From Thermoplasmatota archaeon (GTDB lineage: Archaea > Thermoplasmatota > Penumbrarchaeia > JASLWR01): a DNA stretch of 64,000 nucleotides. The DNA lies in contig JASLWR010000004.1 of the NCBI GenBank assembly GCA_030740765.1, positions 24,873 through 88,872 of the forward strand. The letters are read 5' to 3'. The stretch's first letter is position 1. Each line of letters begins with the position of its first letter. The notes under the pieces are model-generated. The model did no database searches, was not told the DNA's origin, and saw only the letters and a program-made list of their open reading frames with translations. Positions 16,301 to 35,484 of this stretch are shown in pieces. A program made the position numbers and the translations under genes.

Positions 16301-17620
16301 ATTGCTGACCTTAATCCTTTCCCTGCCCCGTATCCAATCGTTCTTTTTCAACTCACCCTGATATTCACCTGTAAGATCGGGAATACCAACCAGCTCCAGG
16401 TCATTCTCGACCTTGAAAAGGTGCGGAAAGCGGTCCGTTCTTACAATTCCCGTGATGGCAGCAGTACTGATATAGCAGTCCACCAGTTCTTCATGTGGGA
16501 ATGTGAAATTGAAAATTACTGAAAAATTCAACCACCACCGCTCGACCCCGTCCGTGGAAACCTTGGAATCGTCAACATTCAATTGAACGTGCCCGTCCAA
16601 GTCCTGATATTTGTAGAAGCGAGATTGTGTCCAGTTGTAGCATAGTGTAGCATTGGTAGTATTATAATCAAGGAAAACCTTGACCTCGGAAACCTCGGTA
16701 AGGTCCCTTGCGGAGGTGACATTCACGCTGAGGGTGTAGTTTCTATGACGGGCATAGCATATATTATTCCCGTCACCCTGTCCCAAAATGGCTGCGTTAT
16801 CGGTATAGGCCGTGAGGTCCACTTCCAGCCAACATGCTACTGGCGTCCCACCCTGGTTCTGACCAACCGTGAGAAGAACTTCGGAGCCGAGCGGAATGGT
16901 GGTTATCTCACCATGGGACGCGGAACTACCGGAGAACGATGGCCGGTTCATGTTTCTAACCATGGGATGATTCACGGATGCCACGAAATTATGGCTATTA
17001 CCATTTCCATTTGTCCTTACACCGAAAGGACCGGGGACACCCCTGGACCACCGGCGTTGGTAATTCGTACCGAACATGTCTATCAATATTCCACCGTCGT
17101 TCACGTATTTCTCCATTGAAGGGACCAGTGACTCCATCTGGTTCAGATGCTGGTTCGGCTGGTACTCGGAAATAATGATCATCCGGTAAATGTTCGGATC
17201 GAAATCGTTTGCATTGATCCCGCCAGCGCTTTTCTGGGTGAATTGTATTCCTCTGTTGTTCATCTCCCGGCGCCAGCCGTCAGACCATCCCTGGTGATCC
17301 CATATGATAAGTATGGCTCCCGAATCCGCATGGGTGGGCCATAACCAATCGAAAGTATTGATGATAAAATAACGGGAATGTTGGCCGTTGCCGTAGCCGT
17401 AACTTGCTATGGTCCCCGTGACAAAATAAATGCCTTTGTCACCAGCGGTACGTTTGTTGGACGAGATGGGCGGAGGCTTTGAGGGGCTCTTTACGTTCAA
17501 CCCCACATCGTGGTTTTCGCTGAGAAGTATTTCAGAGCAAATAGTAAGATATCCCGTTCCTATGAAACACAAAACAACAGCTATCGACACCACCACGGGC
17601 CATGGATTCGTTCTACTCAT
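13391..17620 (-). CDS. Giant single-pass surface protein, paralog D (1409 aa); same architecture, C-terminal Zn ribbon MQCHSCGNNYIAEIAKFPALVTCTVCQTQG.
   Basis: Long ORF in the track. Signal peptide MSRTNPWPVVVSIAVVLCFIGTG. Motifs FDASGSSDEDGDNLSYYW (PKD) and DSDGDGFSDGLERE. TM segment, then a P/Q-rich tail. Confidence 0.85.
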   Translation of the reverse strand: MSRTNPWPVVVSIAVVLCFIGTGYLTICSEILLSENHDVGLNVKSPSKPPPISSNKRTAGDKGIYFVTGTIASYGYGNGQHSRYFIINTFDWLWPTHADSGAILIIWDHQGWSDGWRREMNNRGIQFTQKSAGGINANDFDPNIYRMIIISEYQPNQHLNQMESLVPSMEKYVNDGGILIDMFGTNYQRRWSRGVPGPFGVRTNGNGNSHNFVASVNHPMVRNMNRPSFSGSSASHGEITTIPLGSEVLLTVGQNQGGTPVACWLEVDLTAYTDNAAILGQGDGNNICYARHRNYTLSVNVTSARDLTEVSEVKVFLDYNTTNATLCYNWTQSRFYKYQDLDGHVQLNVDDSKVSTDGVERWWLNFSVIFNFTFPHEELVDCYISTAAITGIVRTDRFPHLFKVENDLELVGIPDLTGEYQGELKKNDWIRGRERIKVSNLKVRYAGAPDIYPDDDYFDVRVADNNGSAWWDNESMGENIEINITSGNDTDPEEEYLITIENIPGTGICMTNLTFPLRIDADPPLFPVNLKCHANDFKDKETEHTNRAEMFVTWDPVEDHSSGLMGYYYSPVDKSGTGNGTFTNVTEVKIEKLNEEFAEIYVWCVDKVGNIGTAASSGILVDLTPPVFSNHTPEDGSWHNHTDIDCSIEIYDGTGSGVDGSTIEYSVSNDGMHGFDFWIPAWIPELNEPMVPNIKYVFQEGEENYIKWRTKDITGNGFVESPSYNIKVDTTPINFAKLISPQVEWYDHEEITTKILVNDIGSGVNPDSLGARISTSSPNDFGRWESVDVENISESGEDGFEITVTFKYAEGKDNYIMFRGTDMVGNLFTLSDKFNLKIDTSPIYFGLFTPDENEYADNEKVECFIQILDASSGVDPATVEYSVANGAGGTGMGGDEKIFGPWKKVVNVVAGNPTQVLIELEFDWGYDNFIRWRADDMMGTGLNISLPYRVWVNSRPEAAIASPDPGSYFRFDSEITFDASGSSDEDGDNLSYYWSSNVSVNRSIGFDAYFSAGLAPGKHTITLFVSDRHGYNESTKVKLEVISQVDFQRDSDGDGFSDGLERESGSDPYNGAISPDGEPDIVISESGGILGGGSSLFFVILGIVLFLTILVLVIIFIVRRRKKDEVRDVSVPIRSPMPQSMYGPAQHPYPQGQFIPVEQKGYGEMAQYQAAVMGMRGAQNPPLIQSIVPDISNTQYSGPNQVQQTQPQQLALYGQSGTGMTGSTAYSLPLFSTDQGPQNLDRMALPPGPPPSEDQGMIGAFTPTQMTAPDLSAQPALLPGVSAMENPFQSPPAPIPLSGEAPPAPPEPTTISPSSTSSLVLGVPPIDTSADSDLSQLDTYLTTLGGLSPPPEPTPSDVPPVPEESPVPPTNKITMQCHSCGNNYIAEIAKFPALVTCTVCQTQGVIESI

Positions 17621-18467: not shown

Positions 18468-21400
18468 ATGAGAAAAATAATGTTATTTACGGTTATTCTG
18501 TTGTTGATGGCGCCTCTCAATGTATTTTTTACAGCCCACCGTTCATCGTTTGTCTCTGACACCGGTTTCGGTTCCAATGACGGGAATAGCAAACTCCATG
18601 TACAAAGTGGAGGTAGAGATGCGACCGCGAATCCTTTTGATTCAGTATTTTTCGATGATTTTGAAAGCGGTTTCACGAATTGGACCCATTCGGGTGTCCA
18701 GATCAATCAGGAAGCCAATAATGAACTGAGCCCAGTGAACGCGGCCAACCTAGACGGCAATGGGGATACTCTTACTTCCAATGCCATTGATCTCCGGGGT
18801 TATGGGTTCGGCCATTTGGAATACGGGGTTCAACCCGGCGGAGGAAGTGATCCGCCAGAGGTGGGGGATGATCTGACAGCCTGGATGAACCTGCAAACCA
18901 TCGGCTGGCATAGGGTAAACATCAGCAAGGGAACCGGTAACCCAAGACCTGATTTCTTGACCGTGAACGTCGCGCTTCCCAAAACCGCTTTCCATGCGGG
19001 TTTTCAGATACGTTTTACCACTCCTGCAATTGAAGCAAATGCCGATGATTGGTATATTGATAACGTGCGTGTAAGCGCATCTGAGGGATCTAATTTATTT
19101 TTTGATGATTTCCCCCCAAATCCTCCCGACAATGCCAAATGGCCAGTATCACTGGGAACACCAGTGGTAAATACAAATGCCCAGGCCATTCCAAGCACGG
19201 GGAACTCTCTGAACCTGGATGGTTCCGGCGATACACTACAATCAGGGACCATCAATTTGGGGAGGGTGAGCGAGGCATATATATTTTATTTCTGGGAGCA
19301 GGGAGATGGAAGTAACGGCAACCGGGACGAACCGGAAAATATGGATAATCTCAAAATCGAATATTATATCGACGATCCGGCCCCTCTATGGTTAGAGGTG
19401 GAGGTTACATCACAGGAAAGAGGAGGCGACCCCGGCAGAGCGTTTTTCATGCTTTCCACTTTTTCGTTACCGTGGGACGCTCTTCATGACAATTTCAAAT
19501 TCAGATTACATACCCCTCAAGGAGATAATAATCTTGATGACTGGTTCATTGATGACATAGGATTGAATGCGGCACCCTCCTATTCCGTCCCTTTCGAGGA
19601 TAATTTTGATGACGGACAACTTGCCGCCGCGAAATGGCCCGGCGGGGACCGAAAAGGGTCACCCCAAGTAAACACCAGGGGCGCGAATGAACCCTCGCTG
19701 ACCTATTCTCTCAATCTGGATGGCAGCGGTGATACGGTTGTGTCAGAAAAAATCGACACGTCCTGGGCACCATGGGCCAGCCTTACGTACTGGTGGCAGC
19801 AAGGGGGAGGGGGGGACGAACCGGAAGCCAATGACGATCTCATCGTGGAGATAAACGTGAGCTCAGGGTGGCGTGTTCTCAAAAAACACCTGGGTGCAAC
19901 CGCAGGAACCAATACATTTACGATGGAGGAATTCGTTCTTCCCCAGGACGCAATTTACGACAAATTCAGGGTTAAGTTCAGCACCACCCAGGGCCAGAAC
20001 AGCAAGGATGACTGGTTTATCGATAACGTTAGCGTGAGAAAGGGGAAAGTAGAAAATCCTTCAGATAAGTTTCAGGATTTTTTCGAATCGGGGAACCTCC
20101 TATCGAACTGGGAAATATTGGAGGGTAATCCACAGATCAACGCGGACGGTCAAAATGAACCCTCGCCATCATCTTCTCTTAATCTCGACGGTGAAGGCGA
20201 CATGATTAGCAGCGGAGGGCTTAATCTAGGACAAGCTGCTACGGCTGTTCTCAGCTTCGATTGGCAGCAGAAAGGCGGGGGTGACGATCCGGAAAACGGG
20301 GACGATCTCTATGCAGACATACTTCTCATGAAGACGGGATGGTTTAACATCTTTCAAGCAAAGGGAGTGGACCAGGCCAATAACTTCTATACCAACTTCT
20401 CATTCGTGCTACCCCAGACTGCTCTCCACGGCAATTTTAAAGTCAGGTTCAGAGTAGGCTCCGCGGAAGGGGTAGGGAAGGACGATTGGTTCATCGACAA
20501 CGTATTGATAAAGGGTAAAGATGGCATGGGATTCAAAAGGGTGGGTATCTACAACGAGTATTCCAACAAGGAGAAGGAAGGAATCAACCCGGCGAAGGCA
20601 CTCAGTTCCCAGTTCACCGATTACAAACTGTACCTTTTCGATGACTACCGTTATGCAGCAGAAAATCTCAGCTCTCTTGATTTCTTCATCATCTGTGAAC
20701 AGGAAAGCCTGGCAGCAGGGAAGGCGGGGGACATTCATAACCACTGGAAGAATTCCATGGCGGATTTACTTAACTATACCGGAAGGGTAGTGGTGCTTGA
20801 CGGCGGGTCCGGAAATTCCAGACTTTTGGTGAGCTCATTTCTAAGCTCCACCGGTCATCAGAATATCCCGGGAAATCCCAACGTGGACAATGACATGCCA
20901 AATCATCCAATTTCCGTTGGAATTCCAAATATCTTCGCTGGCCCTTCGGAAGTGGCTCGTTTTACCGGCGTCAATGGGCGAGAGGTGATGACCGTGAACA
21001 ACAACCCGGTGGTTGTTGAGAAGAGATATGCACGGGGATCGGTGATGTTATTTGGTCTCGATTACTCCGAATGGAATTCGTTCACCGAGAAATTACTTTT
21101 CAATGCTTTAAACTGGTCTGTGATCAATAAGATCCAGGTCAACAAACCCACCATAGCAGAAAATGATGTGTATGCGGGTCTGCCGGTAATGGTCTCTGTG
21201 GATGTGAGCGATACCATCGGACCCGAAGATGTTAGCAAGATCACCTTGGAATTCAACGACACTGGCGTCAGTTTTGAATACGAAGATGGAAATGTAAATA
21301 AATTTGGCAATAATAATGGAACCGTTTCTCTGGATTCATGGCATACCGGAAAAAAAGTGGAGAACCTTACACTCAACCTTAACCTAACATTCGGGTGGGA

Positions 21401-24347
21401 CTTTCCGGTGGGGGTGCCCGTAGATGTCATGGTGAAAGGTTATGCGTCAATGGCCGATAATAATGAACACGAAAACGAAACCTTAGGTCTCTTTACCGTT
21501 AAGAACGAGGTTGCTTTCTTTGGAACGCCGGTGGCAAAAAACAGTACTGGGGACGTGATCCCCTCCGGTGGTTACTGCAAGGGGGGTGACGTGATCACTC
21601 TAACCGGTATAAAGGTTGTTTACAGTGGAACCGAGGACAAATACCCGCCTGACGAGCAATTTGACGTCAACGTCTGGGGTGATGGTGGTGACGACCATTG
21701 GGTGGACATGGTTTCATCTGGAGAGGAGATATCCATCGAAGCCACAATGCCTAATAGTGGTATGAATAATTATTCCTTCAAATTTAACCTGTCAGGTCCT
21801 GCCAGGGCTAATTCGGATCCGGTGGCGTTTTATTACGTGAAAATAGATAATGTCACGCCTCGTCTTTCGAATCCTTTCCCAGAAGAGGGGATGTGGTTTA
21901 ACAGCACCAATGTGAAGTGTAGTATCAATATCAACGACACCGAACAATCCGACGACCTGAGCGTGGTAAAATGCTCATACTCCATTGATGGCAACCAAAC
22001 CTGGTCCAATTGGGTGAATGTGGATTCGATCGTTGATGGTGTGGCGGAAAAGACCCTGACCCTTGCTCAGGGAAAGGTGAATCTCGTGAAGTGGAATGCC
22101 TGGGACCGTTTGGGTAATGGACCCATCGAGTTCGGCCCCACCCCCGTATGGATCGATAGCGAAGGTGTGGAGTTCAGTGATTTTGAACCTTTAGGCAAGA
22201 TCGAGGATCTTATGCCCACATGCACGATCAATGTCTCAGATAGCTTGTCAGGGGTCGGCGATCAGGTATGGGTGCGACAATCAACCAATGGTGGAAATAC
22301 ATGGGATGACTGGACTCAACCGGAAAAAACACCAAACGACGATGGATTCGGACTTTCATACCGAGCCACTTTGCAGGAAGGAAGTGGCAACCGCATCCAG
22401 TGGAAAGTTGAGGATGTCGCGGGAAATGTGAATACCAGCGAATTCAAAATAACCGTGGATACGGAGTTCACCATCCCCGAGGTGGAACTGACCTTTCCGG
22501 GGAACGGGACCAACACGAGTTTGAGGCCCAAGCTGGAGTGGAGCCTGGCCAAAGGGGGTGCAGGAGTGAACTTCAAACTGTTCCTTTCGCTAACGGCTGA
22601 TATAGATACCGATGCCGATACACCGAGAACCGAGACCGAGAACCTATCATATACATTTGACGAGGATATTGCCGATATGACCACCTATTACTGGTCGGTA
22701 ATTCCGGTCAAGGACAACGACGTGGGTATCTGTAAAAGCGGGGTCTGGTCATTTACGGCCATGGAGGGGACTCTACCCGAGCTAAAACTGCAATCACCAG
22801 GGGATTCGGACAAGGCAGAAATCCGTCCCACATTGAGATGGGATTTGACCAGGGCAAAGGAGGGCGTTAAGTATCGTGTCTATGTAAGCAATAACAGTGT
22901 TATCGATACAACAAACGTGTCAGGAGCGAAAAAGATCTTGGATGACAAATCGTATGAATTTGTGGAAGATCTGGTGGATGGCGAGACATATTACTGGATA
23001 GTGATTCCCTTTATTACGGAAGGGGGGATCGACTCTGATGGAAGTTGCCTAAGTGGGGTCTGGTCCTTTATTATAGATGCGAACTTCACCATAAAATGGG
23101 AATTTGATATTGCGGTGGAGCACGAAGCAAAGGATGCCGAGTTCGAGGTCGGGGATCACATGAACTTAACCGTAATAATAACGAATTTGGGTAATTCCCT
23201 CGACATTTACAACCTCTCCATCAGCGAAGATTGGAACTACACCGCTATAGGCTCCCTCGATGTAGCTGACAACGCTACCGGCGACATCAAAATATCAATA
23301 GTACTGCCGCTGGACATCACTCTTGGAAATCACACTTTGGTTATTACCGTTACGTCAACCGGCAATAACACAATAGAGACCGAAATGGTTTCATATGCAA
23401 TAATACAGCCTGGAGGGGTGAATCCTCATGATGACACGAACGAGACGGGAGGAGGTTTCTTTTCGGATATCCCCATGCTCTGGATCATTATCGCCATCGT
23501 GGTGCTCTTCCTGATCATCGTGATAATCGTGATCATCGTTAGAAGACGGAACGATGACTGGGATGACGACGAGGACGACGACGATTACGATGACGAATAC
23601 GACGAGGACGAAGATGAAGAAGAGGAGGATTTCGGTCGTATTCGTAAGGATGGAGCCTCACCCATGCTGGCAACTGGCGCCCAGATGGAACCGTGTACCA
23701 ACACCAACTGCCGTAAACCCATCCCGACAAACACTATGTTCTGCACACATTGCGGAGTGAAACAGGGCCAGCAAGCCGAGACTCCTACAACCGCTTCGAA
23801 GCCGGTTGAAACTGAGATAGAGATCGAGGACCTGGATGTGGAAGAGGATTCGGCCGTTACCCTGGATGAGCTTATGAACCGAGCTTCCCAGTTAATAGAC
23901 ACTCCCAAAAAGGAGGAGCCCGTAACGGAAACTGTTGACGAGCCGGATATAGAGGTCGTTGGCGAGGTAAAGGAAGATAAAGGACTTACTATCGATGATG
24001 TTACCTCCGTGGACCAGCTACTGGACATCATGGTAGTGGAGAGCGAGCCATTCGATGATGACGATGAAGACATTATCGAGGTCGTTGCCACCGCGCCCTT
24101 GGAGGAAGATGACGATGAAGCTTTACCATTACCCACGGTCTCCGCTGCCTCGCTTTACGAGGAGGACGACGACGAGGATCTGGCAGCACCCGAACCCATT
24201 CTTTCCATAGAGGATGTGATGATGGAGATCGCCGGGGAGCCTGACCTTGATGAACCCCCGGAACCGGATCGCGCACCTCCGGGCCTAGCGCCTCCGGCTC
24301 ATGCACCACCGGGTAATGCCCCGCCGCCTCCGCCTCCCCCGGAGTAG
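18468..24347 (+). CDS. Giant surface protein (1959 aa). Signal peptide, four tandem MAM-like ~150-aa repeats, ThuA/GATase1-like region, further beta-rich domains, one TM helix, poly-acidic stretch, Zn ribbon, acidic region, poly-proline C-terminus.
   Basis: Each repeat begins F(D/E)DxFExG and ends DDW(Y/F)IDN(V/I), with LNLDGSGDT in between. TM segment MLWIIIAIVVLFLIIVIIVIIV. Acidic stretch RRRNDDWDDDEDDDDYDDEYDEDEDEEEED. Zn ribbon CTNTNCRKPIPTNTMFCTHCG. C-terminus PPGNAPPPPPPPE. SD-like aggtgg lies 10 nt upstream. Confidence 0.85.
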   Translation: MRKIMLFTVILLLMAPLNVFFTAHRSSFVSDTGFGSNDGNSKLHVQSGGRDATANPFDSVFFDDFESGFTNWTHSGVQINQEANNELSPVNAANLDGNGDTLTSNAIDLRGYGFGHLEYGVQPGGGSDPPEVGDDLTAWMNLQTIGWHRVNISKGTGNPRPDFLTVNVALPKTAFHAGFQIRFTTPAIEANADDWYIDNVRVSASEGSNLFFDDFPPNPPDNAKWPVSLGTPVVNTNAQAIPSTGNSLNLDGSGDTLQSGTINLGRVSEAYIFYFWEQGDGSNGNRDEPENMDNLKIEYYIDDPAPLWLEVEVTSQERGGDPGRAFFMLSTFSLPWDALHDNFKFRLHTPQGDNNLDDWFIDDIGLNAAPSYSVPFEDNFDDGQLAAAKWPGGDRKGSPQVNTRGANEPSLTYSLNLDGSGDTVVSEKIDTSWAPWASLTYWWQQGGGGDEPEANDDLIVEINVSSGWRVLKKHLGATAGTNTFTMEEFVLPQDAIYDKFRVKFSTTQGQNSKDDWFIDNVSVRKGKVENPSDKFQDFFESGNLLSNWEILEGNPQINADGQNEPSPSSSLNLDGEGDMISSGGLNLGQAATAVLSFDWQQKGGGDDPENGDDLYADILLMKTGWFNIFQAKGVDQANNFYTNFSFVLPQTALHGNFKVRFRVGSAEGVGKDDWFIDNVLIKGKDGMGFKRVGIYNEYSNKEKEGINPAKALSSQFTDYKLYLFDDYRYAAENLSSLDFFIICEQESLAAGKAGDIHNHWKNSMADLLNYTGRVVVLDGGSGNSRLLVSSFLSSTGHQNIPGNPNVDNDMPNHPISVGIPNIFAGPSEVARFTGVNGREVMTVNNNPVVVEKRYARGSVMLFGLDYSEWNSFTEKLLFNALNWSVINKIQVNKPTIAENDVYAGLPVMVSVDVSDTIGPEDVSKITLEFNDTGVSFEYEDGNVNKFGNNNGTVSLDSWHTGKKVENLTLNLNLTFGWDFPVGVPVDVMVKGYASMADNNEHENETLGLFTVKNEVAFFGTPVAKNSTGDVIPSGGYCKGGDVITLTGIKVVYSGTEDKYPPDEQFDVNVWGDGGDDHWVDMVSSGEEISIEATMPNSGMNNYSFKFNLSGPARANSDPVAFYYVKIDNVTPRLSNPFPEEGMWFNSTNVKCSININDTEQSDDLSVVKCSYSIDGNQTWSNWVNVDSIVDGVAEKTLTLAQGKVNLVKWNAWDRLGNGPIEFGPTPVWIDSEGVEFSDFEPLGKIEDLMPTCTINVSDSLSGVGDQVWVRQSTNGGNTWDDWTQPEKTPNDDGFGLSYRATLQEGSGNRIQWKVEDVAGNVNTSEFKITVDTEFTIPEVELTFPGNGTNTSLRPKLEWSLAKGGAGVNFKLFLSLTADIDTDADTPRTETENLSYTFDEDIADMTTYYWSVIPVKDNDVGICKSGVWSFTAMEGTLPELKLQSPGDSDKAEIRPTLRWDLTRAKEGVKYRVYVSNNSVIDTTNVSGAKKILDDKSYEFVEDLVDGETYYWIVIPFITEGGIDSDGSCLSGVWSFIIDANFTIKWEFDIAVEHEAKDAEFEVGDHMNLTVIITNLGNSLDIYNLSISEDWNYTAIGSLDVADNATGDIKISIVLPLDITLGNHTLVITVTSTGNNTIETEMVSYAIIQPGGVNPHDDTNETGGGFFSDIPMLWIIIAIVVLFLIIVIIVIIVRRRNDDWDDDEDDDDYDDEYDEDEDEEEEDFGRIRKDGASPMLATGAQMEPCTNTNCRKPIPTNTMFCTHCGVKQGQQAETPTTASKPVETEIEIEDLDVEEDSAVTLDELMNRASQLIDTPKKEEPVTETVDEPDIEVVGEVKEDKGLTIDDVTSVDQLLDIMVVESEPFDDDDEDIIEVVATAPLEEDDDEALPLPTVSAASLYEEDDDEDLAAPEPILSIEDVMMEIAGEPDLDEPPEPDRAPPGLAPPAHAPPGNAPPPPPPPE

Positions 24348-25096: not shown

Positions 25097-26656
25097 GTGA
25101 ATGTTTTGTCCATGGAAGAGAAGATCGAGGAGCTAAGGAGAAAGAAAGAGGAAATGAAGCTGGGTGGCGGTAAGGAGCGTATTGTTCAACAGCACAAAAA
25201 GGGTAAATTAACGGCAAGGGAAAGGATCGATCTATTGTTGGATAACGGCAGTTTCATAGAGATGGATGCATTCGCGCTTCATCATTGCACGGATTTCGGT
25301 ATGGAAAAGAAACGCGTGCTTGGAGATGGTGTGGTAACAGGTTACGGCAACATCGACGGACGGCTGGTTTATGTATTTTCACAGGACTTCACGGTATTCG
25401 GCGGTTCACTGGGTTGGAAATTTGCCGAAAAGATCTGCAAGGTCATGGATATGGCCATGAAGAACGGCGCACCTGTGATCGGCCTTAATGATTCGGGTGG
25501 TGCCCGGATCCAGGAAGGAGTAATATCGCTGGGCGGTTATGCCGAGATATTTTTCAGAAATGTCATGGCGTCCGGAGTGATCCCTCAGATCTCCGCAGTA
25601 ATGGGACCATGCGCGGGAGGGGCGGTCTATTCACCCGCCATAACGGATTTTATCTTCATGGTGAAGGAAACCAGTCACATGTTCATAACCGGTCCCAACG
25701 TAATAAAGGCTGTTACCGGGGAGAAGGTCAGTTTCGAGCAGCTTGGGGGAGCCATGGCCCACAACGAGAAGAGCGGCGTCGCGCACTTTGCGGCCGAGAA
25801 CGAGGAGAACTGCATCGAATACATAAAGACCCTTTTTTCCTTTCTTCCGTCGAATAACATGGACGATCCACCTCGAGTAATGGTCGGTGACGATCCGAAC
25901 CGGATGGACACGGAACTGCTGAAGATAATTCCGGACGAGTCTGACAAACCCTATGACATGAAAGACATAATCCGCCGAGTGGTGGACAACGATGAATTTC
26001 TTGAGGTACATAAGCATTGGGCAATGAATATAATAGTGGGTTTTGCAAGACTCGACGGCTACTCAGTTGGTATTATCGGTAACCAGCCGAATGTTCTGGC
26101 CGGTACTCTCGATATAAATTCCTCGACGAAGGCTGCGCGATTCGTCAGGTTCTGTGATGCTTTCAACATTCCCCTCTTGACCTTCGAGGACGTTCCGGGT
26201 TTCCTTCCAGGCACTTCCCAGGAATACGGCGGAATAATCCGAAACGGGGCCAAATTATTATATGCATACAGCGAGGCCACTGTTCCAAAGATGACCGTTA
26301 TAACCCGAAAGGCATACGGTGGGGCCTATGACGTTATGTGCTCGAAACACATACGGGCGGATATAAACTTTGCATGGCCATCGGCAGAGCTTGCGGTAAT
26401 GGGCCCGGGCGGTGCGGTAAACATAATATTCAGAAAGGAAATTCAGGCGGCCGAGGACCCAGAAAGAAGGACTGATGAACTAGTCGCCCAGTACCGTGAA
26501 AAATTCGCCAATCCCTATATTGCAGCCGAGATGGGTTACATTGATGACATAATCGAGCCTCAGGAGACCAGACCCCGGATAATAAACGCTTTAAAGACCC
26601 TGTTGAACAAAAGGGAATCCCGCCCGGCAAAGAAACACGGAAATATACCTTTGTGA
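25097..26656 (+). CDS. pccB: Acyl-CoA (propionyl/acetyl-CoA) carboxylase, carboxyltransferase subunit
   Basis: N-terminal [39 protein letters not shown]. Carboxyltransferase domains throughout ([22 protein letters not shown]). 519 aa. Confidence 0.9.
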
Positions 26657-26660
26657 TCAC

Positions 26661-28196
26661 ATGTTCCGGAAAATACTGGTGGCCAATCGAGGGGAGATCG
26701 CTCTCCGGGTCATGAGGACTTGCAGGGAAATGGGTATCTCCACCGTTGGAATTTACTCCGATATCGACGCGTATGCTCTTCATGCGAGGTATGCCGACGA
26801 ATCATACAGGGTCGGTGAAAACCCGTCTAGAAAAAGTTACCTGGATGCCGACAGGATCATCGAAGTTGCAAAAGAGACCGGTTCGGATGCAATTCATCCC
26901 GGTTATGGCTTTCTCGCGGAAAATGCCGATTTTGCCCGGAAATGCGAAACGAATGACATTATTTTCATCGGGCCGTATTCCGATTCAATGGCGAAGGTTG
27001 GAGATAAGATCGCCTCGCGTCGATTGGCTAAGAAGGCAGGGATACCCATAACTTCCGGGAGCGATGGTGCCGTAGACGAGAACAATGCCATGGAAATTGC
27101 CCGTGAAATCGGCTATCCTGTGATACTGAAATCCTCGGCTGGTGGAGGCGGGATAAGCATGGGAGTGGTGGAGGAGCCCGGGGACCTGATAAATAAACTC
27201 GATATCGCCCGTTCATCATCGTTATCGTCCTTTGGTGACCCGAATATATTCATTGAAAAATATCTCCTGAGGCCGAGGCATATCGAATTTCAGATTCTGG
27301 CGGATAAACACGGCAATATCATACACCTGGGTGAGCGGGAATGCTCGATCCAGCGAAGATTCCAGAAGTTGATAGAAGAAGCTCCAAGTGTTGTTGTGGA
27401 TGAAGAGACTCGAAATCTTATTGGGGAACGGTCGGTGGAAATTGCGAGATTGGCGGGCTATGTGAACGCGGGGACCATTGAATTTCTGTACCAGGACGGG
27501 GAATTCTTTTTCAATGAGGTCAATGCCAGGTTGCAGGTTGAGCATCCCATCACGGAGCTTGTGACCGGTGTGGATCTTGTAAAGGAGCAAATTCGTATTG
27601 CCCATGGGGCCGAACTGGGGTTTTCACAGAGCGACATTAAATGTAGGGGATGGGCCATGGAATGCAGGATCAACGCAGAGGATCCGTACAATAACTTCAT
27701 CCCTTCCCCTGGAAAGGTTACAGGCTACGTAGCTCCTGGCTCTATTGGGGTCCGTGTCGATTCGGGTATTGTGTCTGGCTCCCTGATCCCAACGTTTTAC
27801 GATTCTCTCTTCGCCAAGGTCGTGGTTCACGCGGATACCAGGGCCTCAGTGGTGGAAAGAATGGGCAGGGCATTGAGAGAGATGAGGGTAGAGGGGATCG
27901 ATACGAACATTCCGTTCCATTTGCATGTGATGGACGACGTATGCTTCAAGGAGGGAGACTTCGATACGAACTTCATCGTTAAAAGAGAAATAATTAAAGG
28001 CCTTTGCCGGGAAGGGGAAGAGCTTAGGCGCGAAATGAATAGAAGGGCTGCGGCGGTTTCGGTTGCCCTTGCCATGTCAAAGGGGCAAATGTCAAAATTT
28101 CATCGGATCGATAATGAAACGAGGTCGCATGATGCTGTCAGCAAATGGAAAATGGCGGGTAGGCTGGAGCGGCTTGGTAGGGGTTTGTCCTCATGA
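26661..28196 (+). CDS. accC: Biotin carboxylase subunit with ~60-aa C-terminal extension
   Basis: MFRKILVANRGEIALRVMRTCREMGI; ATP-grasp and BC motifs (EMNARLQVEHPITE). Confidence 0.9.
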   Translation: MFRKILVANRGEIALRVMRTCREMGISTVGIYSDIDAYALHARYADESYRVGENPSRKSYLDADRIIEVAKETGSDAIHPGYGFLAENADFARKCETNDIIFIGPYSDSMAKVGDKIASRRLAKKAGIPITSGSDGAVDENNAMEIAREIGYPVILKSSAGGGGISMGVVEEPGDLINKLDIARSSSLSSFGDPNIFIEKYLLRPRHIEFQILADKHGNIIHLGERECSIQRRFQKLIEEAPSVVVDEETRNLIGERSVEIARLAGYVNAGTIEFLYQDGEFFFNEVNARLQVEHPITELVTGVDLVKEQIRIAHGAELGFSQSDIKCRGWAMECRINAEDPYNNFIPSPGKVTGYVAPGSIGVRVDSGIVSGSLIPTFYDSLFAKVVVHADTRASVVERMGRALREMRVEGIDTNIPFHLHVMDDVCFKEGDFDTNFIVKREIIKGLCREGEELRREMNRRAAAVSVALAMSKGQMSKFHRIDNETRSHDAVSKWKMAGRLERLGRGLSS

Positions 28197-28723
28197 AATT
28201 CGACCTGTTATTGGACGGAAAAACTTACGAAGTCGAACTGAATATCGGGAAAACCGTTGTTGTAAAACTTGATGGTGTCACTTATAAAGCGGAATTGGAC
28301 CGTACTGAAAAAGATATTTATATATTACTGAACGGAACTAAATCTCACGTGCGGTTTACCGGATCGCACGTATCGGTGGACGGCCATAGACACATGGTAG
28401 AAGTGAAAAATCTTAGGAGGGGGATGCCCCACTGGTCTAATACCTTGAAAGAAGTTGAAGAAGATGCTACCCACAGCTCTTCATTGGAAGAACCCAGGGG
28501 AGAAGGAGTTGTTTACCCGCCCATGCCCGGTAGAGTAATTGCCATAAACGTCAGTGAAGGCGATCGGGTCAATATCGGCTCGCCAATTCTGATACTCGAA
28601 GCCATGAAGATGCAAAATGAACTTTGCTCGAAATGGAACGGGGAGGTGCGGGAGATAAAGGTCACAGTGGGCGATATGGTAGAATCGGGGGATGTATTGA
28701 TGGTTATAGGGAACAAACATTAA
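28193..28723 (+). CDS. Biotin carboxyl carrier protein (biotinyl-lysine motif EAMKM)
   Basis: C-terminal ILILEAMKMQNEL...GDVLMVI; overlaps accC by 4 nt, which fits operon organisation. Confidence 0.85.
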   Translation: MKFDLLLDGKTYEVELNIGKTVVVKLDGVTYKAELDRTEKDIYILLNGTKSHVRFTGSHVSVDGHRHMVEVKNLRRGMPHWSNTLKEVEEDATHSSSLEEPRGEGVVYPPMPGRVIAINVSEGDRVNIGSPILILEAMKMQNELCSKWNGEVREIKVTVGDMVESGDVLMVIGNKH

Positions 28724-29006: not shown

Positions 29007-29648
29007 TTATTCAGGAGGCGGTGGCAGCGGCGGCTCTGCAGCCTCAGGCAAAGCCTGCGCTTCCTCAACCGGTGCTAATGCAGGCCATCCTTGCGCTTCG
29101 CCGCCGGATTCCCCTATCGGAACAGCCGGAGATTGTGCGTTTTGCGTAGGCAAAACTTGCTGTTGCATTCCATAGTCCGGCGCGGATTCCGGTTGATGAA
29201 GCTCAGTCACGGTAGGCGGCCCGGATGGGTATGTTTCGCCACGGTTTGTTTCATCCGGCCCACCATTAACCTTTTTCCTCCTTAACATTAGAACGAAGAG
29301 AACCGCCGTGATGATCACGATGATACCCATTATGATACCGACCACTGCCAATGCGGAGAGCCCTTCCTTTTCCGTGACGTTATCAGGCTCGGTGGTATCG
29401 TCATCTTCGGTATCATCATCCCCCACGAATATCTGTTTCACTGTGATATTGACGATCCCGGTGCCGGAAAGCTCTGCAGCATCCATGACGGTCAGTGTAA
29501 CAGAATAGTTTCCTGGAATTTCGAAGTTGAAATTTACCATCCGACCTTCCAGCATTACGAGGGAACCATTGTGGTCAAAGGACCAGACATAGCTCACTAC
29601 ACCTACATTGTCGCTACTTCCGCTACCGTCGAGGATCGGCACAATCAA
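29007..29648 (-). pseudogene. 3' fragment of a surface-protein gene: partial PKD domain, TM helix, Pro-rich cytoplasmic tail ending PPLPPPPE. Truncated at its 5' side by the IS element.
   Basis: The ORF begins at a TTG inside a PKD domain (IVPILDGSGSSDNVGVVSYVWSFD) that lacks its first strands. An in-frame stop (cta at 29649-29651) sits immediately upstream, at the presumed IS junction. Confidence 0.55.
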
Positions 29649-29651
29649 CTA

Positions 29652-31208
29652 ATCCAGTGATGACAAGATAGAAATACCATCTTTGTTTATCGGTTTTTAC
29701 CAAACAAAAAACAAAGAGGTATTTCCATGTCAATAATAGAGAGCACCCTTAATAATTTTTTCTACTGGTCGATACTACGAGAAATATTTTACTCGTTCCC
29801 CCATGAGTATGAATTCACCAAGAGGGGAACCATCAGAAGGATCGAAAGACCAATTTGTCCTCGTTGTGGGAAACCCATGGTAAAGAATGGATTCAATTCC
29901 TACACAAAGAAAGGATTGGGCATAGTCAAGGTCGGAAAATGGCGTTGCACAAAGTGCAAGGTCTCTCTTGAAGAAGACAAAACATTCTGGGAAAATCTCA
30001 AGGATGAGTTCTTTGAGGTGTTAGTTCACATAACCAAGATTCTCAAAGATCACAAGGTTTCCTTCCAGGGGATCAGCGACGTATTCGCATTGGTCTATCC
30101 AAGGTCCAGAGAAACGGTCCGTCTTCAATTCACGAAGAATATTGATGAGGTCGAAATACCAGTTGATACCAATTTCTTCGTGATACATTACGATGAGCAA
30201 CACCCAAGGAAAGGTAGATGCCAGAAATTCAGATTGACATTACTTGATTCAAGTTCCAAGGAGCCTATCGCGGATGAACTCTTCGATGATAAAAGTACCG
30301 AGACCATTGAAAAGTTCCTGGCAAAATATATCGACCCCGAAAAACCTGTTTATATCGTTACCGATCTTGACCCGCGTTACCCAGGCATGTTCGAACGCTT
30401 CTTTACTAATGTTTATTATCATCAACCTTGCTTGACACACCTGAACAAGCGGATAGTAAACGATTTCCCAAGGAAATGCACCTTCCAGCTGGAGTATCTG
30501 AAATACCGTCTGCTGAACATATTCTACGATAGGACCAAGGAACTCCAGTATCTGAAACGAATGATCGAGAAGGAGGAAAAGAGGAAGGATAAAACGGGTT
30601 ATAAACAGTGGTTGAAACGAGCATGGAAGTGTTTCCGTGACCACATTCACAAGTGGAAAAAACGGAGACGTAGGAATAAGGAAAAATTGAAAATGCGTTC
30701 GTACAACGGCTCGGTTCAGGTCTTCAATAAATTGGTTGACGAGTATGATGATTTTCCCGATTATGTCCAGAAACGAATAGATATGATCTCGAAAAACTGG
30801 GAGAATCTCAACACGTTTCGAATGATAAAGGATGGTCCGGCCACGAACAATGCAATCGAAAATTATTACTCTACATCACTGAAAACCCATCAGAAAAGGC
30901 AGTACACCTCCGACGAGGGGATTGAGAGACAGATGAAACTCTCCTGGATGAAGCGGGCAGGAATGTTGAAATACGAAGGCAAAACCCTGCTTCAGATTAT
31001 GATAAAGTTCATGCCGTTCAGGGATCCGGGATAAAACTTGGATAATTTCCGACTATTCGTCATCATTGGTAGTGGATACTTTATTTGGATTTGGATTGAG
31101 AGATGTTTTCAAGAAGGGTCGGGGTGAGATGAGAGAATTTTCGCGCGGTTTAAAAGAAAATTGATGGGAAAAAAGGACGAAATTGACATGATGAATCTTA
31201 TGAATTTG
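29652..31208 (+). mobile_element. Putative IS element (~1.56 kb) carrying one transposase gene; ends not resolved.
   Basis: A transposase ORF is flanked on both sides by two in-frame fragments of what looks like one surface-protein gene (29007-29648 and 31209-31700). Terminal inverted repeats could not be confidently identified by eye. Confidence 0.45.
29727..31034 (+). CDS. Transposase with N-terminal zinc ribbon (IS1595/ISH6-like signature)
   Basis: Zn ribbon CPRCGKPMVKNG...CTKCK. C-terminal TNNAIENYYSTSLKTHQKRQY resembles the TNxIEsxnsxLKR motif of IS1595-type transposases. Family assignment is tentative. Confidence 0.65.
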   Translation: MSIIESTLNNFFYWSILREIFYSFPHEYEFTKRGTIRRIERPICPRCGKPMVKNGFNSYTKKGLGIVKVGKWRCTKCKVSLEEDKTFWENLKDEFFEVLVHITKILKDHKVSFQGISDVFALVYPRSRETVRLQFTKNIDEVEIPVDTNFFVIHYDEQHPRKGRCQKFRLTLLDSSSKEPIADELFDDKSTETIEKFLAKYIDPEKPVYIVTDLDPRYPGMFERFFTNVYYHQPCLTHLNKRIVNDFPRKCTFQLEYLKYRLLNIFYDRTKELQYLKRMIEKEEKRKDKTGYKQWLKRAWKCFRDHIHKWKKRRRRNKEKLKMRSYNGSVQVFNKLVDEYDDFPDYVQKRIDMISKNWENLNTFRMIKDGPATNNAIENYYSTSLKTHQKRQYTSDEGIERQMKLSWMKRAGMLKYEGKTLLQIMIKFMPFRDPG

Positions 31209-31700
31209 CTAAATAACGAGAAAAAAGGTTTGTGCCATCCGATTATAGTCGTTTTGGACATCTATCCCAGCATCATTTCCGCTGGAACCGCTATTTGTTA
31301 TATTAAAACCCGTTATATTAACCCATGCGGACGTGATCTGTACCACATCCCCGTTTCCGCTTCCGTTGATGGTGGTATTCGCAGTTCCATTGCCGATTAG
31401 AGTGATAGTACGGTTAATGATCACGTTCTCACTATAATTTCCTGCATAAACATATATGGTATCGCCAGGATTGGAGGCATTTATTGCATCCTGAATTGTT
31501 ACATGGTCCTGCCCTCCACTGGCATCAACGATAATGTTCCCGCGTTTTCCGCTGATAATACCTTTCTGATCGTTACCCTTGATTATTCTCGATTCTTGGT
31601 AGTTTGTTTCGTTTCTTAACCACTCTGTATTATTGGCGAGACTGATGAATATTCCATTAACTAAGAACAACACAAATAAGATGCATATAATTTTTTTCAT
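31209..31700 (-). pseudogene. 5' fragment of a secreted right-handed beta-helix (pectin-lyase-fold/NosD-like) protein, truncated after 163 aa at the IS junction.
   Basis: Signal peptide MKKIICILFVLFLVNGIFISLA. Beta-helix repeats NRTITLIGNGTANTTINGSGNGDVVQITSAWVNITGFNITNSGSSGNDAGIDV. Stop (cta) at 31209-31211. Confidence 0.55.
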
Positions 31701-31898
31701 AACCTTCCTCCATATTACTTAACAGTGTTAAGTTTGTGAACATATGTTTTTCTATAAATTTTTTCTTTATCCAATAATTATAATATCGACTCTCGATTTC
31801 AGAGAAGGAAAAAGATTTTACCCTCGTATTGATAAACCTTGCCAGTTGATCAAAGAAAAGTAACGCCAACATTCTCATACAATAAAAAATCGTTTTTC

Positions 31899-33275
31899 CT
31901 AAATTCCCATTGGAGCAGGAGGAATCAACCCTTTTTCCATCAGAGCCTTAGTTTTATTTCGCGATTCTTCGATTATTTCTCGTGCTCTTTCGCGTATCTC
32001 AGATGTCGACAGTTTCCGCCTTGCTATACCCTGCTCGATTGCTTTCCGTCCCACATATTCAGCCTCTTTGATGAAAACTTCCCAGTCATCCATTGTGGGA
32101 ACGATGTAATCCTCGTGTATTCCCTTTTCCACAGCGGTCTCCGCAATAGCATCTGCAGCGGCTATTGCCATTTCATCGGTGATGGTGGTTGCACGCACGT
32201 CCAGCGTACCCCGGAAGATCCCAGGGAAACCTATGGAATTGTTTATCTGATTGGGAAAGTCGCTCCTGCCTGTGCCTACGATCCTCGCCCCCGCTTCCTT
32301 TGCTTCCCAGGGCCAGATCTCCGGAACGGGGTTTGCTACCGGGAACACGATAGCATCATCGTTCATATCCCGAACCCACTCTTTTTTGATTATTCCCGGG
32401 CCTGGTCTGGATGCCGCTACGAGAACATCGGCTCCTTTCATGGCCTCCTTGACCCCGCCTGTTAAACCGTCCGGATTGGTGGTGGACGCGAAATCGTATT
32501 TCCAGGGGTTTATTTCCTTCATCGATTCTAAGTCCTCTCTTCCCCCATGAAGTATTCCCTTGCTGTCTACCAAGGTAATATTTTTTCTGGGAACGCCGTA
32601 TTTCGTAAGTACTCTGAGATAAGCAATATTTGCGGCTCCCACACCATTTATTGCAAAGGTTGCTTCCCCCATTTTTTTCCCCACGACCTTGAGGGCGTTG
32701 ATGGTACCGGCAAGTGTGATACTAGCTGTTCCCTGCTGGTCATCATGCCAGACTGGAATATCCATTTCTTTTCGTAATCTCTCCAGTATGTAGAAGCAAT
32801 CCGGTACCTTGATATCCTCGAGGTTGATACCACCAAACGTGGGCTCCACCAGCTTAACCGTTTCAATGAACTTTTCAGGATCTTCCGTATCTATCATAAG
32901 AGGTTGTGCGTCCACTCCCCCGAGATATTTGAAAAGAAGTCCTTTTCCTTCCATAACGGGTAGACCTGCATAGGGACCGATATTTCCTAGGCCAAGTACC
33001 CGTGTACCATTGCTGGCCACAGCCACTGTATTCCACCGGTTCGTCAATTCATTGACCTCGGAGATATCTTCCTTGATGGCAAGGCAGGGCTGGGCTACGC
33101 CAGGCGTATAATAAACCGCAAAATCATTGAACGAACTTATGGAACACTTGGAAATTATCTCGATCTTACCTTGAAAATGTCTGTGCCAAGGTATGCCCTT
33201 GCGGACCGGTTCTTTTGCTTTTTCCAGTAATTTCGCAACATCCTGATTTGAATTTTTCTCGGGTTGTTCGTTCAT
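31899..33275 (-). CDS. NAD(P)-dependent malic enzyme (malate dehydrogenase, decarboxylating)
   Basis: YTPGVAQPCLAI and GTASITLAGTINALKVVGKKMGEATFAINGVGAANIA, typical of short-form malic enzymes. Confidence 0.9.
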   Translation of the reverse strand: MNEQPEKNSNQDVAKLLEKAKEPVRKGIPWHRHFQGKIEIISKCSISSFNDFAVYYTPGVAQPCLAIKEDISEVNELTNRWNTVAVASNGTRVLGLGNIGPYAGLPVMEGKGLLFKYLGGVDAQPLMIDTEDPEKFIETVKLVEPTFGGINLEDIKVPDCFYILERLRKEMDIPVWHDDQQGTASITLAGTINALKVVGKKMGEATFAINGVGAANIAYLRVLTKYGVPRKNITLVDSKGILHGGREDLESMKEINPWKYDFASTTNPDGLTGGVKEAMKGADVLVAASRPGPGIIKKEWVRDMNDDAIVFPVANPVPEIWPWEAKEAGARIVGTGRSDFPNQINNSIGFPGIFRGTLDVRATTITDEMAIAAADAIAETAVEKGIHEDYIVPTMDDWEVFIKEAEYVGRKAIEQGIARRKLSTSEIRERAREIIEESRNKTKALMEKGLIPPAPMGI

Positions 33276-33474
33276 GTCCTTACCATCCGTGTTTTCTTTT
33301 AAAGACTATCTCATTCGGATATATAAAAGGCACTTTCCAATTTTTCGCCCTTGGAATTCTTACCTCGAAAATTGACAATATTGCAGATTTTTTTCGACCA
33401 TCCCACCAAGGATATTTTAATGAAAACCCTCGATTTACATAGACCCCGGGCGATTTTTATTCCGGGAGAACACT

Positions 33475-34338
33475 TCACGCAAGCTCTTCAGCCAATAACG
33501 CAGGAATTTCACCAGGTGTCGCTGCAACCCTGACATTCGCTTTTGACAGGGCTTCGATCTTTGCGCGGGCAGAACCCGTGCCTCTGGATATTATGGCGCC
33601 GGCATGTCCCATGGTCTTGCCCTTTGGGGCGGCCCGACCGGCAATATAGGCGATAACTGGTTTCGTTATATGTCCTTTTATGAACTCGGCCGCCTCTTCC
33701 TCGGCACTGCCCCCTATCTCGCCGATCAACACTATCCCTCTGGTATCCGGGTCTCTCTCGAAACGCACCAGCAGGTCGATGAAATTCAGTCCTACAATGG
33801 GGTCCCCCCCTAAGCCTATAGCAGTTGATTGACCCATGCCCGCTTTGCTTAGATCATCCACTATTTCATAGGTAAGGGTCCCGCTCCGTGAGATAAGACC
33901 GATGGTTCCCGGACAGAATACATGCGATGGCATTACACCCATCTTGCATTTTCCCGGACTTATGATTCCAGGAGTGTTCGGACCTATCACAACGATATTT
34001 TTTTTACTCGCTCGATGAACTATCTCCAGAGAATCATGTATGGGGATGTGTTCAGTAATAACAACAACCGGGTCCAAACCAAATTCGATGGCCTCGAGGG
34101 CAGCGTCTCTTGCAAAGGGCGCAGGGACGAAGATGATGGACGCCGTGGGTTTTTCCGGAATCTCATCGAATGAATCGTATACATTAATTTCTCCCACCTT
34201 TTCTCCGCCCTTTCCCGGCGTCACCCCTGCCACGACATTTGTTCCGTATTCGATCAATCTTTCGGTGTGAAACCTCCCTTGGCCTCCTGTGATCCCCTGA
34301 ACAACCACTTTCGTAGAATCGTCGATTATTATTGACAT
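33475..34338 (-). CDS. sucD: Succinyl-CoA synthetase alpha subunit
   Basis: VVVQGITGGQGRFHTERLIEYGTNVVAGVTPGKGG; active-site His region GHAGAIISRGTGSA. Confidence 0.9.
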   Translation of the reverse strand: MSIIIDDSTKVVVQGITGGQGRFHTERLIEYGTNVVAGVTPGKGGEKVGEINVYDSFDEIPEKPTASIIFVPAPFARDAALEAIEFGLDPVVVITEHIPIHDSLEIVHRASKKNIVVIGPNTPGIISPGKCKMGVMPSHVFCPGTIGLISRSGTLTYEIVDDLSKAGMGQSTAIGLGGDPIVGLNFIDLLVRFERDPDTRGIVLIGEIGGSAEEEAAEFIKGHITKPVIAYIAGRAAPKGKTMGHAGAIISRGTGSARAKIEALSKANVRVAATPGEIPALLAEELA

Positions 34339-35484
34339 CTATAAACCCTCCCTGTATGCTTTGGCCTGTTCCACCGCGTTTTTCGCTGAGTCTTCCATGT
34401 TTTCGTAAACATGATAACCATTATCGGTCAAAATCTTCTTGCCTTCTTCCTCATTGGTACCCATCATGCGTACCGAAATTGGTATCCCTGGTGCAGTATC
34501 CACGATGCCGCGTGCTATCTCATCGCACTTCGTGATGCCGCCAAAGATATTGATGAAAATGGATCTCACGTCTGGTTTTTTCAATACTATACTTAAGGCC
34601 TTGGCCATATTCCTTGCATTGGCGCCTCCGCCCACATCCAGGAAATTGGCAGGCTCGCCGTTAAACTGTTTAAGGATATCCAAAGAGGCCATGACGAGAC
34701 CCGCGCCGCAGCCGATTATCCCGATATCGCCAGGTAGATCCACGTATGCCAATCCCGCTTCCCGGGCTTCTTTTTCGAGATCGGTGAACTCTTCGCTGGT
34801 TTTTCCTTCTGAGCTGAATTCAGGGTGACGGAAAAGTGCATTATTATCGATATTCAGGACTGCGTCCACTGCAATAACATTACCGTCGTCCGTGAGGATC
34901 AGGGGATTTATTTCGGCCAATTCCCCATCGTAGGCCCTGAATACGTCATAAAGTTTCACAGTAATTGCGGCAACCTTCAACATTTTCTTTCCGGCGAGTC
35001 CGATCTGCTTACTGAGTTTACGGGCGTGATATTGTTGAAAACCGACTTCCGGATCGATGTCGAACCTGGCGATGGCCCCGGGATTTTCTCGCGCTACTTC
35101 TTCGATATCCACACCTCCCCTGGAGGACAGAATACAGGTGAAACTTCTTGACTTGCGGTTTACAGTAAATCCCACGTACAGCTCTCTCGCATGGATCAGG
35201 TCTGCCTTTTCTTCGATCAAAAGTTGTCGGACAGCGTGTCCTTTTAGTTCCATTCCAAGCAATTCGGGGATTATCCTCCTGGCCTCATTCATGGATTCGG
35301 CAAATCTTATCCCGCCTGCCTTGCCCCGGCCGCCAACCAGGACCTGGGCTTTCAGGGCTACCGGAAATTCAAGCTCTTTATGTATGGCTTCGCCTTCGTT
35401 TTCATTATCGATAACGATACTCTTGGGTACCGGTATCCCGAATTGTGAAAATATTTCCTTTGCCCTGTATTCATGTAATTTCAT
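34339..35484 (-). CDS. sucC: Succinyl-CoA synthetase beta subunit
   Basis: MKLHEYRAKEIFSQFGIPVPKS; ATP-grasp plus CoA-ligase domains; abuts sucD with no spacer. Confidence 0.9.
   Translation of the reverse strand: MKLHEYRAKEIFSQFGIPVPKSIVIDNENEGEAIHKELEFPVALKAQVLVGGRGKAGGIRFAESMNEARRIIPELLGMELKGHAVRQLLIEEKADLIHARELYVGFTVNRKSRSFTCILSSRGGVDIEEVARENPGAIARFDIDPEVGFQQYHARKLSKQIGLAGKKMLKVAAITVKLYDVFRAYDGELAEINPLILTDDGNVIAVDAVLNIDNNALFRHPEFSSEGKTSEEFTDLEKEAREAGLAYVDLPGDIGIIGCGAGLVMASLDILKQFNGEPANFLDVGGGANARNMAKALSIVLKKPDVRSIFINIFGGITKCDEIARGIVDTAPGIPISVRMMGTNEEEGKKILTDNGYHVYENMEDSAKNAVEQAKAYREGL

Follow-up and report, generated by a model that had tools for sequence, protein, structure and literature searches.

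We analyzed an insertion sequence (IS) and the two truncated surface-protein open reading frames (ORFs) on either side of it in a 64,000-nucleotide stretch of a Thermoplasmatota archaeon genome (assembly GCA_030740765.1, contig JASLWR010000004.1, positions 24,873 to 88,872 of the forward strand), referred to here as the window. An earlier note, made from the sequence alone, had proposed that a recent IS insertion split the gene for a secreted beta-helix/PKD/transmembrane (TM) surface protein, leaving a 1308-bp zinc-ribbon transposase gene on the plus strand between two minus-strand fragments. The parts that it named are present, and we find the following features at the locus:

29007 to 29637, minus strand: gene-derived 3′ remnant of 209 codons (end of a PKD domain, stalk, TM helix, and tail)
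29283 to 29360, minus strand: TM helix, read from the sequence, followed by a Pro/Gln-rich cytoplasmic tail
29379 to 29423, minus strand: acidic stalk, read from the sequence
29439 to 29633, minus strand: last ~65 residues of a PKD domain, from the PKD_4 match
29630 to 29637, no strand: left flanking 8-mer CGAGGATC, putative orphan half of a target duplication, no partner
29638 to 31236, plus strand: complete IS of 1599 bp, an ISMac19-like (NCBI "ISNCY") single-ORF DDE element, delimited from its other copies
29638 to 29650, plus strand: left terminal inverted repeat (TIR) GGCACAATCAACT, identified from the TIR of relatives
29727 to 31034, plus strand: transposase gene, 1308 bp, 435 amino acids (aa), with an N-terminal zinc ribbon and a DDE domain carrying an alpha-helical insertion domain
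31224 to 31236, plus strand: right TIR AAAGGTTTGTGCC, degenerate in the window copy (relatives end in TTTGATTGTGCC)
31237 to 31244, no strand: right flanking 8-mer ATCCGATT, putative orphan half of a second target duplication, alternatively one end of the deletion, no partner
31237 to 31700, minus strand: gene-derived 5′ remnant of 154 codons (signal peptide and start of a NosD-type beta-helix)
31239 to 31538, minus strand: first ~3 to 4 coils of a NosD-type right-handed beta-helix, from a profile match
31635 to 31700, minus strand: signal peptide of the 5′ remnant, read from the sequence

The minus-strand ORF at 31209-31700 encodes 163 aa that open with a hydrophobic signal-like segment, MKKIICILFVLFLVNGIFISLA, recognized by eye. 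As the earlier note had described, it enters a pectin-lyase-type fold and stops abruptly, matching the Pectinesterase profile over positions 1 to 80 of 298 (E value, 6e-6) and the NosD_copper_fam profile over positions 1 to 82 of 377 (E value, 7e-18). No PF05048 or PF13229 match was found in this fragment, i.e., the complete NosD/Beta_helix core is absent; the homologues P0005, P0020, and P0021 have one. Its final nine codons and stop (31209-31238) are IS sequence, the stop itself being at 31209-31211. The minus-strand ORF at 29007-29648, of 213 aa, begins in the middle of a PKD domain, again as described, the PKD_4 match starting only at profile position 22 of 85. Its first three codons and the in-frame TAG just upstream (29649-29651), i.e., 29638-29651, are likewise IS sequence, and its annotated start, TTG at 29648 or GTG at 29642, lies inside the IS. 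We infer that the two remnants are pseudogene pieces, with the IS providing the stop of the 5′ piece and the apparent start of the 3′ piece. In the public record the two ORFs are named "pectinesterase family protein" and "PKD domain-containing protein"; for annotation, both should be treated as pseudogene remnants of one, possibly two, large surface-protein genes and not counted as functional proteins. A further ORF of 73 aa (31657-31878, minus strand) overlaps the start of the N-terminal fragment in another frame and is a gene call in several assemblies (L003, L007, and L010). It has no family match, sits in a promoter-like region of 32 to 35% GC, and is probably spurious.

The ends of the element could be defined, as the earlier note had hoped, but only through other copies, the junction regions that it suggested for alignment lying too far inside the IS. 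A search for inverted and direct repeats inside the locus alone did not reveal them. A metagenome scan with the transposase gave four short contigs, informative for the ends and with no partners for a target-site duplication (TSD), and an exact-protein look-up of the transposase returned 10 loci. One of these loci, L002, from an NCBI Thermoplasmatota metagenome-assembled genome (MAG), has only the IS in common with the window, its gene context being wholly different by BLAST. The alignment covers window positions 29636-31239, slightly wider than the IS, since a few bases of the flanks agree as well. At the base level L002 reads GTCTTGTC, then GGCACAA...TTGTGCC, then GTCTTGTC again, a perfect 8-bp TSD in cis, and this reading therefore places the IS at 29638-31236 (1599 bp) with an 8-bp TSD. 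The outermost 7 nucleotides on each side of the window copy are the same GGCACAA...TTGTGCC, and the two copies show 0 differences in 1599 positions. In diverged copies, with transposases of 75 to 90% protein identity (L094-L110), similarity begins and stops exactly at the same ends.

The TIR of these relatives is 13 to 14 bp long, of the type GGCACAATCAAAT, with GGCAC(A/T)ATC... at the ends in all copies. In the window copy, perfect pairing is confined to the outer 7 nucleotides (GGCACAA), i.e., 7 of 13 compared with 12 to 13 of 13 in relatives. The window-type IS has nonetheless transposed recently in spite of its degenerate right TIR, given the identical L002 copy with its intact TSD.

A perfect 8-bp TSD was found at all seven of the other independent sites of this IS group. 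Four of these are in cis (L002, L098, L099, and L100) and three were rebuilt from unpaired flanks that find their match on another contig (AATTCCAT, GTCACAAC, and CCTACATC). As positive controls, we removed the IS and one TSD copy in silico, which gave open frames of at least 597 aa for L099, 308 aa for L098, and 340 aa for L100, the last carrying a histidine-kinase H-box; open frames were likewise restored in 3/3 cross-contig pairs. At L099 (positions 1411-3009; ENA ERZ24794647, NODE_74621), an IS with a 90%-identical transposase and a clean TTCCCAGA duplication divides a very large minus-strand ORF, called as 1230 aa plus 169 aa, and a NosD/beta-helix gene adjoins. The flanking 8-mer just before the left end GGCAC ends in (A/G)TC in four of nine cases, GTCTTGTC (L002), GTCGGATC (L100), CCTACATC (L104/L102), and CGAGGATC (window left), which hints at a weak target preference of the group, the sites being too few for testing.

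The window site departs from this rule. The IS here has no 8-bp TSD, since CGAGGATC and ATCCGATT differ, and they differ identically in seven other assemblies; the two flanking 8-mers therefore represent two different cut sites. Neither 8-mer had a partner in the fetched loci or at another place in the window, and comparing the window with itself by BLAST revealed no further IS copy, partner junctions, alternative flanks, or paralogues. Thus, of the check that the earlier note had proposed, aligning other copies for the repeats and the duplication, the IS ends and TIR were found and the TSD was missing. The only bases common to both flanks are ATC, a 1-in-64 coincidence.

These observations bear on the simplest explanation, a recent insertion into an intact gene whose precise excision would restore the protein. 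It is true that the fragments share a frame, lie 1563 nucleotides apart, and give an open frame of 363 codons when the flanks are joined (CGAGGATCCGATT across the junction). The shared phase, cited in the earlier note as evidence, is correct as an observation but uninformative, because the IS length is 1599 = 3 × 533 bp; a genuine insertion would add 1599 bp and the 8-bp duplication, 1607 bp in all, and leave the halves out of phase, as expected from the duplications at 7/7 other sites. The joined product is also not a plausible protein, having 82 of 377 NosD positions of a beta-helix followed by a PKD domain that lacks its first ~20 residues. Joining leaves the PKD_4 score unchanged (35.0 versus 35.3 bits, still from profile position 21) and yields no NosD or Beta_helix core, although the K319L-like_PKD score gains 2 bits. 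In homologues, PKD repeats start ~20 residues ahead of "LDGSGSSDN," the equivalent of "...DAGIDVQNDYNR" is followed by 200 to more than 1000 further residues, and the equivalent of "...VNITGFNITNSG..DAGI..." by hundreds of residues of further coils. The motif "DAGIDVQNDYNR" belongs to the beta-helix and not to PKD (compare "DSGINIDSDYNRI" in P0010). We also considered "DAGIDVQ...ILDGSGSSD" as a restored PKD N terminus and rejected it, because in every homologue this motif is part of the beta-helix and joining brings no PKD_4 gain. The outcome that the earlier note had named as a refutation of its proposal was thus observed: once joined, the flanks do not make up an uninterrupted beta-helix/PKD protein. 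The shared ATC and the mutual identity of the IS copies would suit a fresh insertion, but the junction is fixed across samples, and overall a simple insertion is extremely improbable. Of the earlier proposal, this much is borne out: the IS is real, was recently active, and lies exactly between truncated stretches of surface-protein coding sequence that agree in strand and polarity.

In our view, the locus is probably a scar left by an IS-associated deletion within a single large gene for a membrane-anchored cell-surface protein. The ancestral gene would have encoded a signal peptide, one or more beta-helix domains, Ig/PKD repeats, an acidic stalk, a TM helix, and a cytoplasmic tail. In one possible route, the gene would have taken up two IS copies of the same orientation: the copy in the early beta-helix would have duplicated ATCCGATT, the copy in the last PKD domain CGAGGATC, and the DNA between the copies would then have been lost by homologous recombination. 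In the other, intramolecular transposition of a single IS copy would have deleted the adjacent DNA. Both routes would leave the same product, which does not discriminate between them. By comparison with full-length relatives that match both remnants, the loss may amount to ~1000 codons (~3 kb).

An exhaustive phmmer search yielded relatives whose alignment to the N-terminal remnant starts at residue 1 to 8, signal peptide included, and shows 48 to 52% identity: P0241 (1668 aa), P0242 (1535 aa), and P0330 (1263 aa). The C-terminal remnant aligns to PKD repeats of P0241 at 1179-1241 and 1267-1335, and to residues 1112-1204 of P0330, covering its last PKD, acidic stalk, and "EGLS" motif and running into the TM helix (33% identity). 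P0330 and P0241 are alone among full-length relatives in matching both ends, and the stretch between their two matched regions measures 957 to 1117 residues. The combination of beta-helix, PKD repeats, and C-terminal TM helix also occurs in shorter relatives, of which P0021 and P0046 are full proteins that begin with a signal peptide, and P0020 has lost its N terminus at a contig end. Because both ends occur together in P0241 and P0330, and because the remnants lie on the same strand in the correct head-to-tail order, a single ancestral gene is the most economical source; these comparisons make such a common derivation of the two fragments plausible without proving it.

The remnants could instead come from two different genes, neighboring paralogues or distant loci, that were brought together by a multigene IS-mediated deletion or by an inversion between opposite IS copies. 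The unmatched flanks would fit such an event, relatives do have tandem clusters of beta-helix/PKD surface-protein genes (L012 and L130), and alternative joins exist, written a1-IS-n in L005 and c-IS-y in L008. In addition, the C-terminal remnant is only 33 to 43% identical to P0330 and P0241. On the other hand, the two pieces are complementary parts on the same strand in the correct order, with no third gene remnant present, P0241 and P0330 show that both ends are possible in one protein, and the reciprocal junction is in no fetched locus. On balance, we regard an origin from two genes as unlikely.

The same pair of flanks could also have been brought together by assembly. If at least two identical IS copies were present, their flanks might have been misjoined, or an arrangement c-IS-middle-IS-n might have collapsed to c-IS-n, with nothing deleted. 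The window probably comes from a short-read MAG (NCBI MAG proteins MDP6154853-55), and metagenome contigs with this IS group commonly have their flanks shuffled (L101-L107, L005, and L008). Many contigs end exactly at IS edges (L003, L007, L114, L115, and L123-L128). However, the whole IS is crossed with the window-type junction in seven independent assemblies besides the window, while each alternative join was seen once. Three of these seven crossings are MEGAHIT k141 contigs; MEGAHIT is not known to resolve repeats and should be unable to jump over a middle segment of equal coverage. Two IS copies flanking a retained middle predict the partner junctions AAGGTTTGTGCC+CGAGGATC and ATCCGATT+GGCACAATCAAC, and neither was present in any contig inspected, 12 of 22 short transposase-bearing contigs having been read and more being indexed. 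A random chimera, moreover, would rarely unite complementary same-strand halves of one protein architecture. We judge an artefact very unlikely.

The alternative joins deserve description in their own right. In L008/L125 (GCA_002998485.1, PVBE011208673.1), the left flank of the window is joined via the IS to another right flank, GACTCGGC..., which encodes a Y1 (IS200/IS605-type) transposase. In L005/L113 (ERZ27245211), the left flank of L002 is joined via the IS to the right flank of the window. Each was seen once, and they may be real recombinants or chimeras. L101-L107 (JGI samples 3300009105-3300013120) carry identical IS copies, with a transposase 85% identical to that of the window, whose flanks are mostly mismatched. 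Paired across contigs, these flanks yield 8-bp duplications, and the ORFs are restored, including two for surface proteins; the mismatches could be chimeras of assembly or genuine rearrangements mediated by the IS.

Variation among the assemblies is slight, with two segregating SNPs in all and a difference of 0.2% at most in the flanks. The IS has been recently active, and the deletion junction is fixed in the sampled marine Thermoplasmatota population. Because the junction is common to every sampled genome, it is not a strain-private recent event, so the suggestion that the locus would serve to date a recent insertion did not hold, even though the IS copies are identical.

Several points weigh against a deletion within one gene. 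Most directly, no ancestral allele, undeleted or IS free, and no syntenic orthologous locus was found. The uninterrupted orthologue that the earlier note had proposed for comparison was sought among ~15 billion proteins and none appeared, the 90% clusters of both fragments holding truncated forms only; the N-terminal remnant is alone in its 50% cluster (exhaustive phmmer search, 1.84 billion cluster representatives). The genomic contexts of P0003, P0005, and P0002 are unrelated and those of P0330 and P0241 are not syntenic. In a malic-enzyme scan of GTDB representatives, the best among the matches listed had 78% identity (L014), with different neighbors. The one-gene origin and the size of the loss would follow from paralogue architecture at 33 to 52% identity. 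The shared ATC could be taken for a tiny (3-bp) duplication, the inspection for partner junctions covered 12 of the 22 short transposase-bearing contigs, and the shuffling of flanks across identical IS copies in public assemblies (L005, L008, and L101-L107) makes an artefact or an inversion conceivable.

The IS locus lies between a biotin-dependent carboxylase operon at 25097-28723 on the plus strand (carboxyltransferase, biotin carboxylase, and biotinyl carrier) and a block of malic enzyme and succinyl-CoA synthetase beta and alpha genes at 31899-35484 on the minus strand. This neighborhood is not kept in the closest available species (L014) among the matches listed. The window also contains five giant ORFs of 1409 to 1959 aa, at 4264-8751, 8879-13234, 13391-17620, and 52447-56703 on the minus strand and at 18468-24347 on the plus strand. 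Three of them, in tandem on the same strand, have as their sole Pfam match one bacterial TSP3 repeat each, at about residue 1050 to 1075; there is also one Reelin subrepeat-B match and one marginal HEAT match. They are probably large, poorly characterized surface or structural proteins. No Rfam match was found in the window.

Giant surface-protein genes host four of the ~8 mapped sites of the IS group (the window, L099, L101/L107, and L104/L102). It is conceivable, although decidedly unlikely, that the group preferentially ends up in such genes of marine Thermoplasmatota. If selection for loss or remodeling of surface proteins, e.g., to evade viruses or grazers that use them as receptors, lay behind this, these uncultured archaea would repeatedly vary their surface through disruptions and deletions caused by the IS, and the process would not be one of neutral decay. 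Otherwise, IS-associated deletion is itself textbook biology and ordinary genome decay, and the element is already annotated in NCBI Thermoplasmatota MAGs. For this archaeal IS group, which is unclassified, our analysis supplies the ends (GGCACAATCAAAT-type TIR), the 8-bp TSD, and a likely catalytic triad. Given the identical IS copies and frequently shuffled flanks in public contigs, synteny and gene-content calls near such elements in Thermoplasmatota MAGs should be made with care.

The transposase belongs to a family of at least 935 homologous proteins. Cys44, Cys47, and Cys77 of the zinc ribbon that the earlier note had recognized are invariant across a 17-sequence alignment, as are D156, D213, and E378, the last within NNxxE. 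No significant Pfam or NCBIfam match was found for the window protein, its match to the NCBIfam IS66 model (E value, 0.011; 14.8 bits) being below the cutoff of 180; PF03050 (DDE_Tnp_IS66) is matched by 12 of 17 relatives, with a best E value of 3.6e-8. Searching the PDB with the transposase profile gave no sequence match. An AlphaFold model (pLDDT 70) shows the order beta-beta-beta-alpha-beta-alpha-beta-alpha, an all-alpha insertion, and then the helix carrying the E residue. In a fold comparison, the ISCth4 and Hermes transposases, integrase cores, and MuA came out on top, with low TM-scores. The model and the alignment support a DDE (RNase-H-fold) transposase, with D156/D213/E378 as the likely catalytic triad. 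Only one ORF of meaningful length fits the 1599-bp element, with no accessory tnpA/tnpB as in canonical IS66.

Compared with known systems, the product at this locus resembles the deletions of other elements. IS-mediated deletion, by recombination between direct copies or by adjacent deletion, is established for IS1, IS26, IS6110, and others. As in those cases, we see a single IS, nonidentical flanking targets, coding loss between the break points, and remnants cut exactly at the IS ends, whereas here the mechanism is deduced from the product; no two-copy intermediate or intact allele was observed. Among surface proteins of Thermoplasmatota and other archaea, the N-terminal remnant matches the signal peptide and first coils of P0241, P0330, P0020, P0021, and P0046 (41 to 59% identity), and the C-terminal remnant matches a late PKD repeat of P0241 and P0020 (40 to 47%). 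The window version, in contrast, retains 363 of the expected 500 to 1700 residues of such beta-helix/PKD/TM proteins and is interrupted, and no relative is syntenic.

The element itself adds to an archaeal IS group that is known but poorly classified. NCBI names the window protein "ISNCY family transposase," and ISNCY, in ISfinder and NCBI usage, is a holding category for elements not yet classified and not a defined family. The transposase is 47% identical over 100% coverage to P0134, labeled by NCBI "ISNCY family transposase ISMac19," and it resembles ISMac19 in size as well (435 to 437 aa), but the window element represents a distinct lineage in marine Thermoplasmatota; the likeness described here is between the proteins. 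ISDge4, of the ISBst12 group of the IS66 family, has a single transposase ORF of ~440 to 450 aa, an 8-bp direct repeat, and short imperfect TIRs of 13 to 14 bp, and the TIRs of ISDge4 and the ISBst12 group begin with GTAA or GT(G/A)AC (PMC12898284). The window element is alike in its single ~440-aa ORF, 8-bp repeat, short imperfect TIRs, and the IS66-type DDE domain of its relatives, which suggests an affinity of our IS group with IS66/ISBst12. It differs in that its TIR opens with GGCAC instead of GT(G/A)AC, its zinc ribbon is of another type, and the window protein itself falls below significance on IS66 models. A parallel also lies in the target, as ISBst12 was itself discovered through inactivation of an S-layer gene, comparable with the surface-gene site described here.

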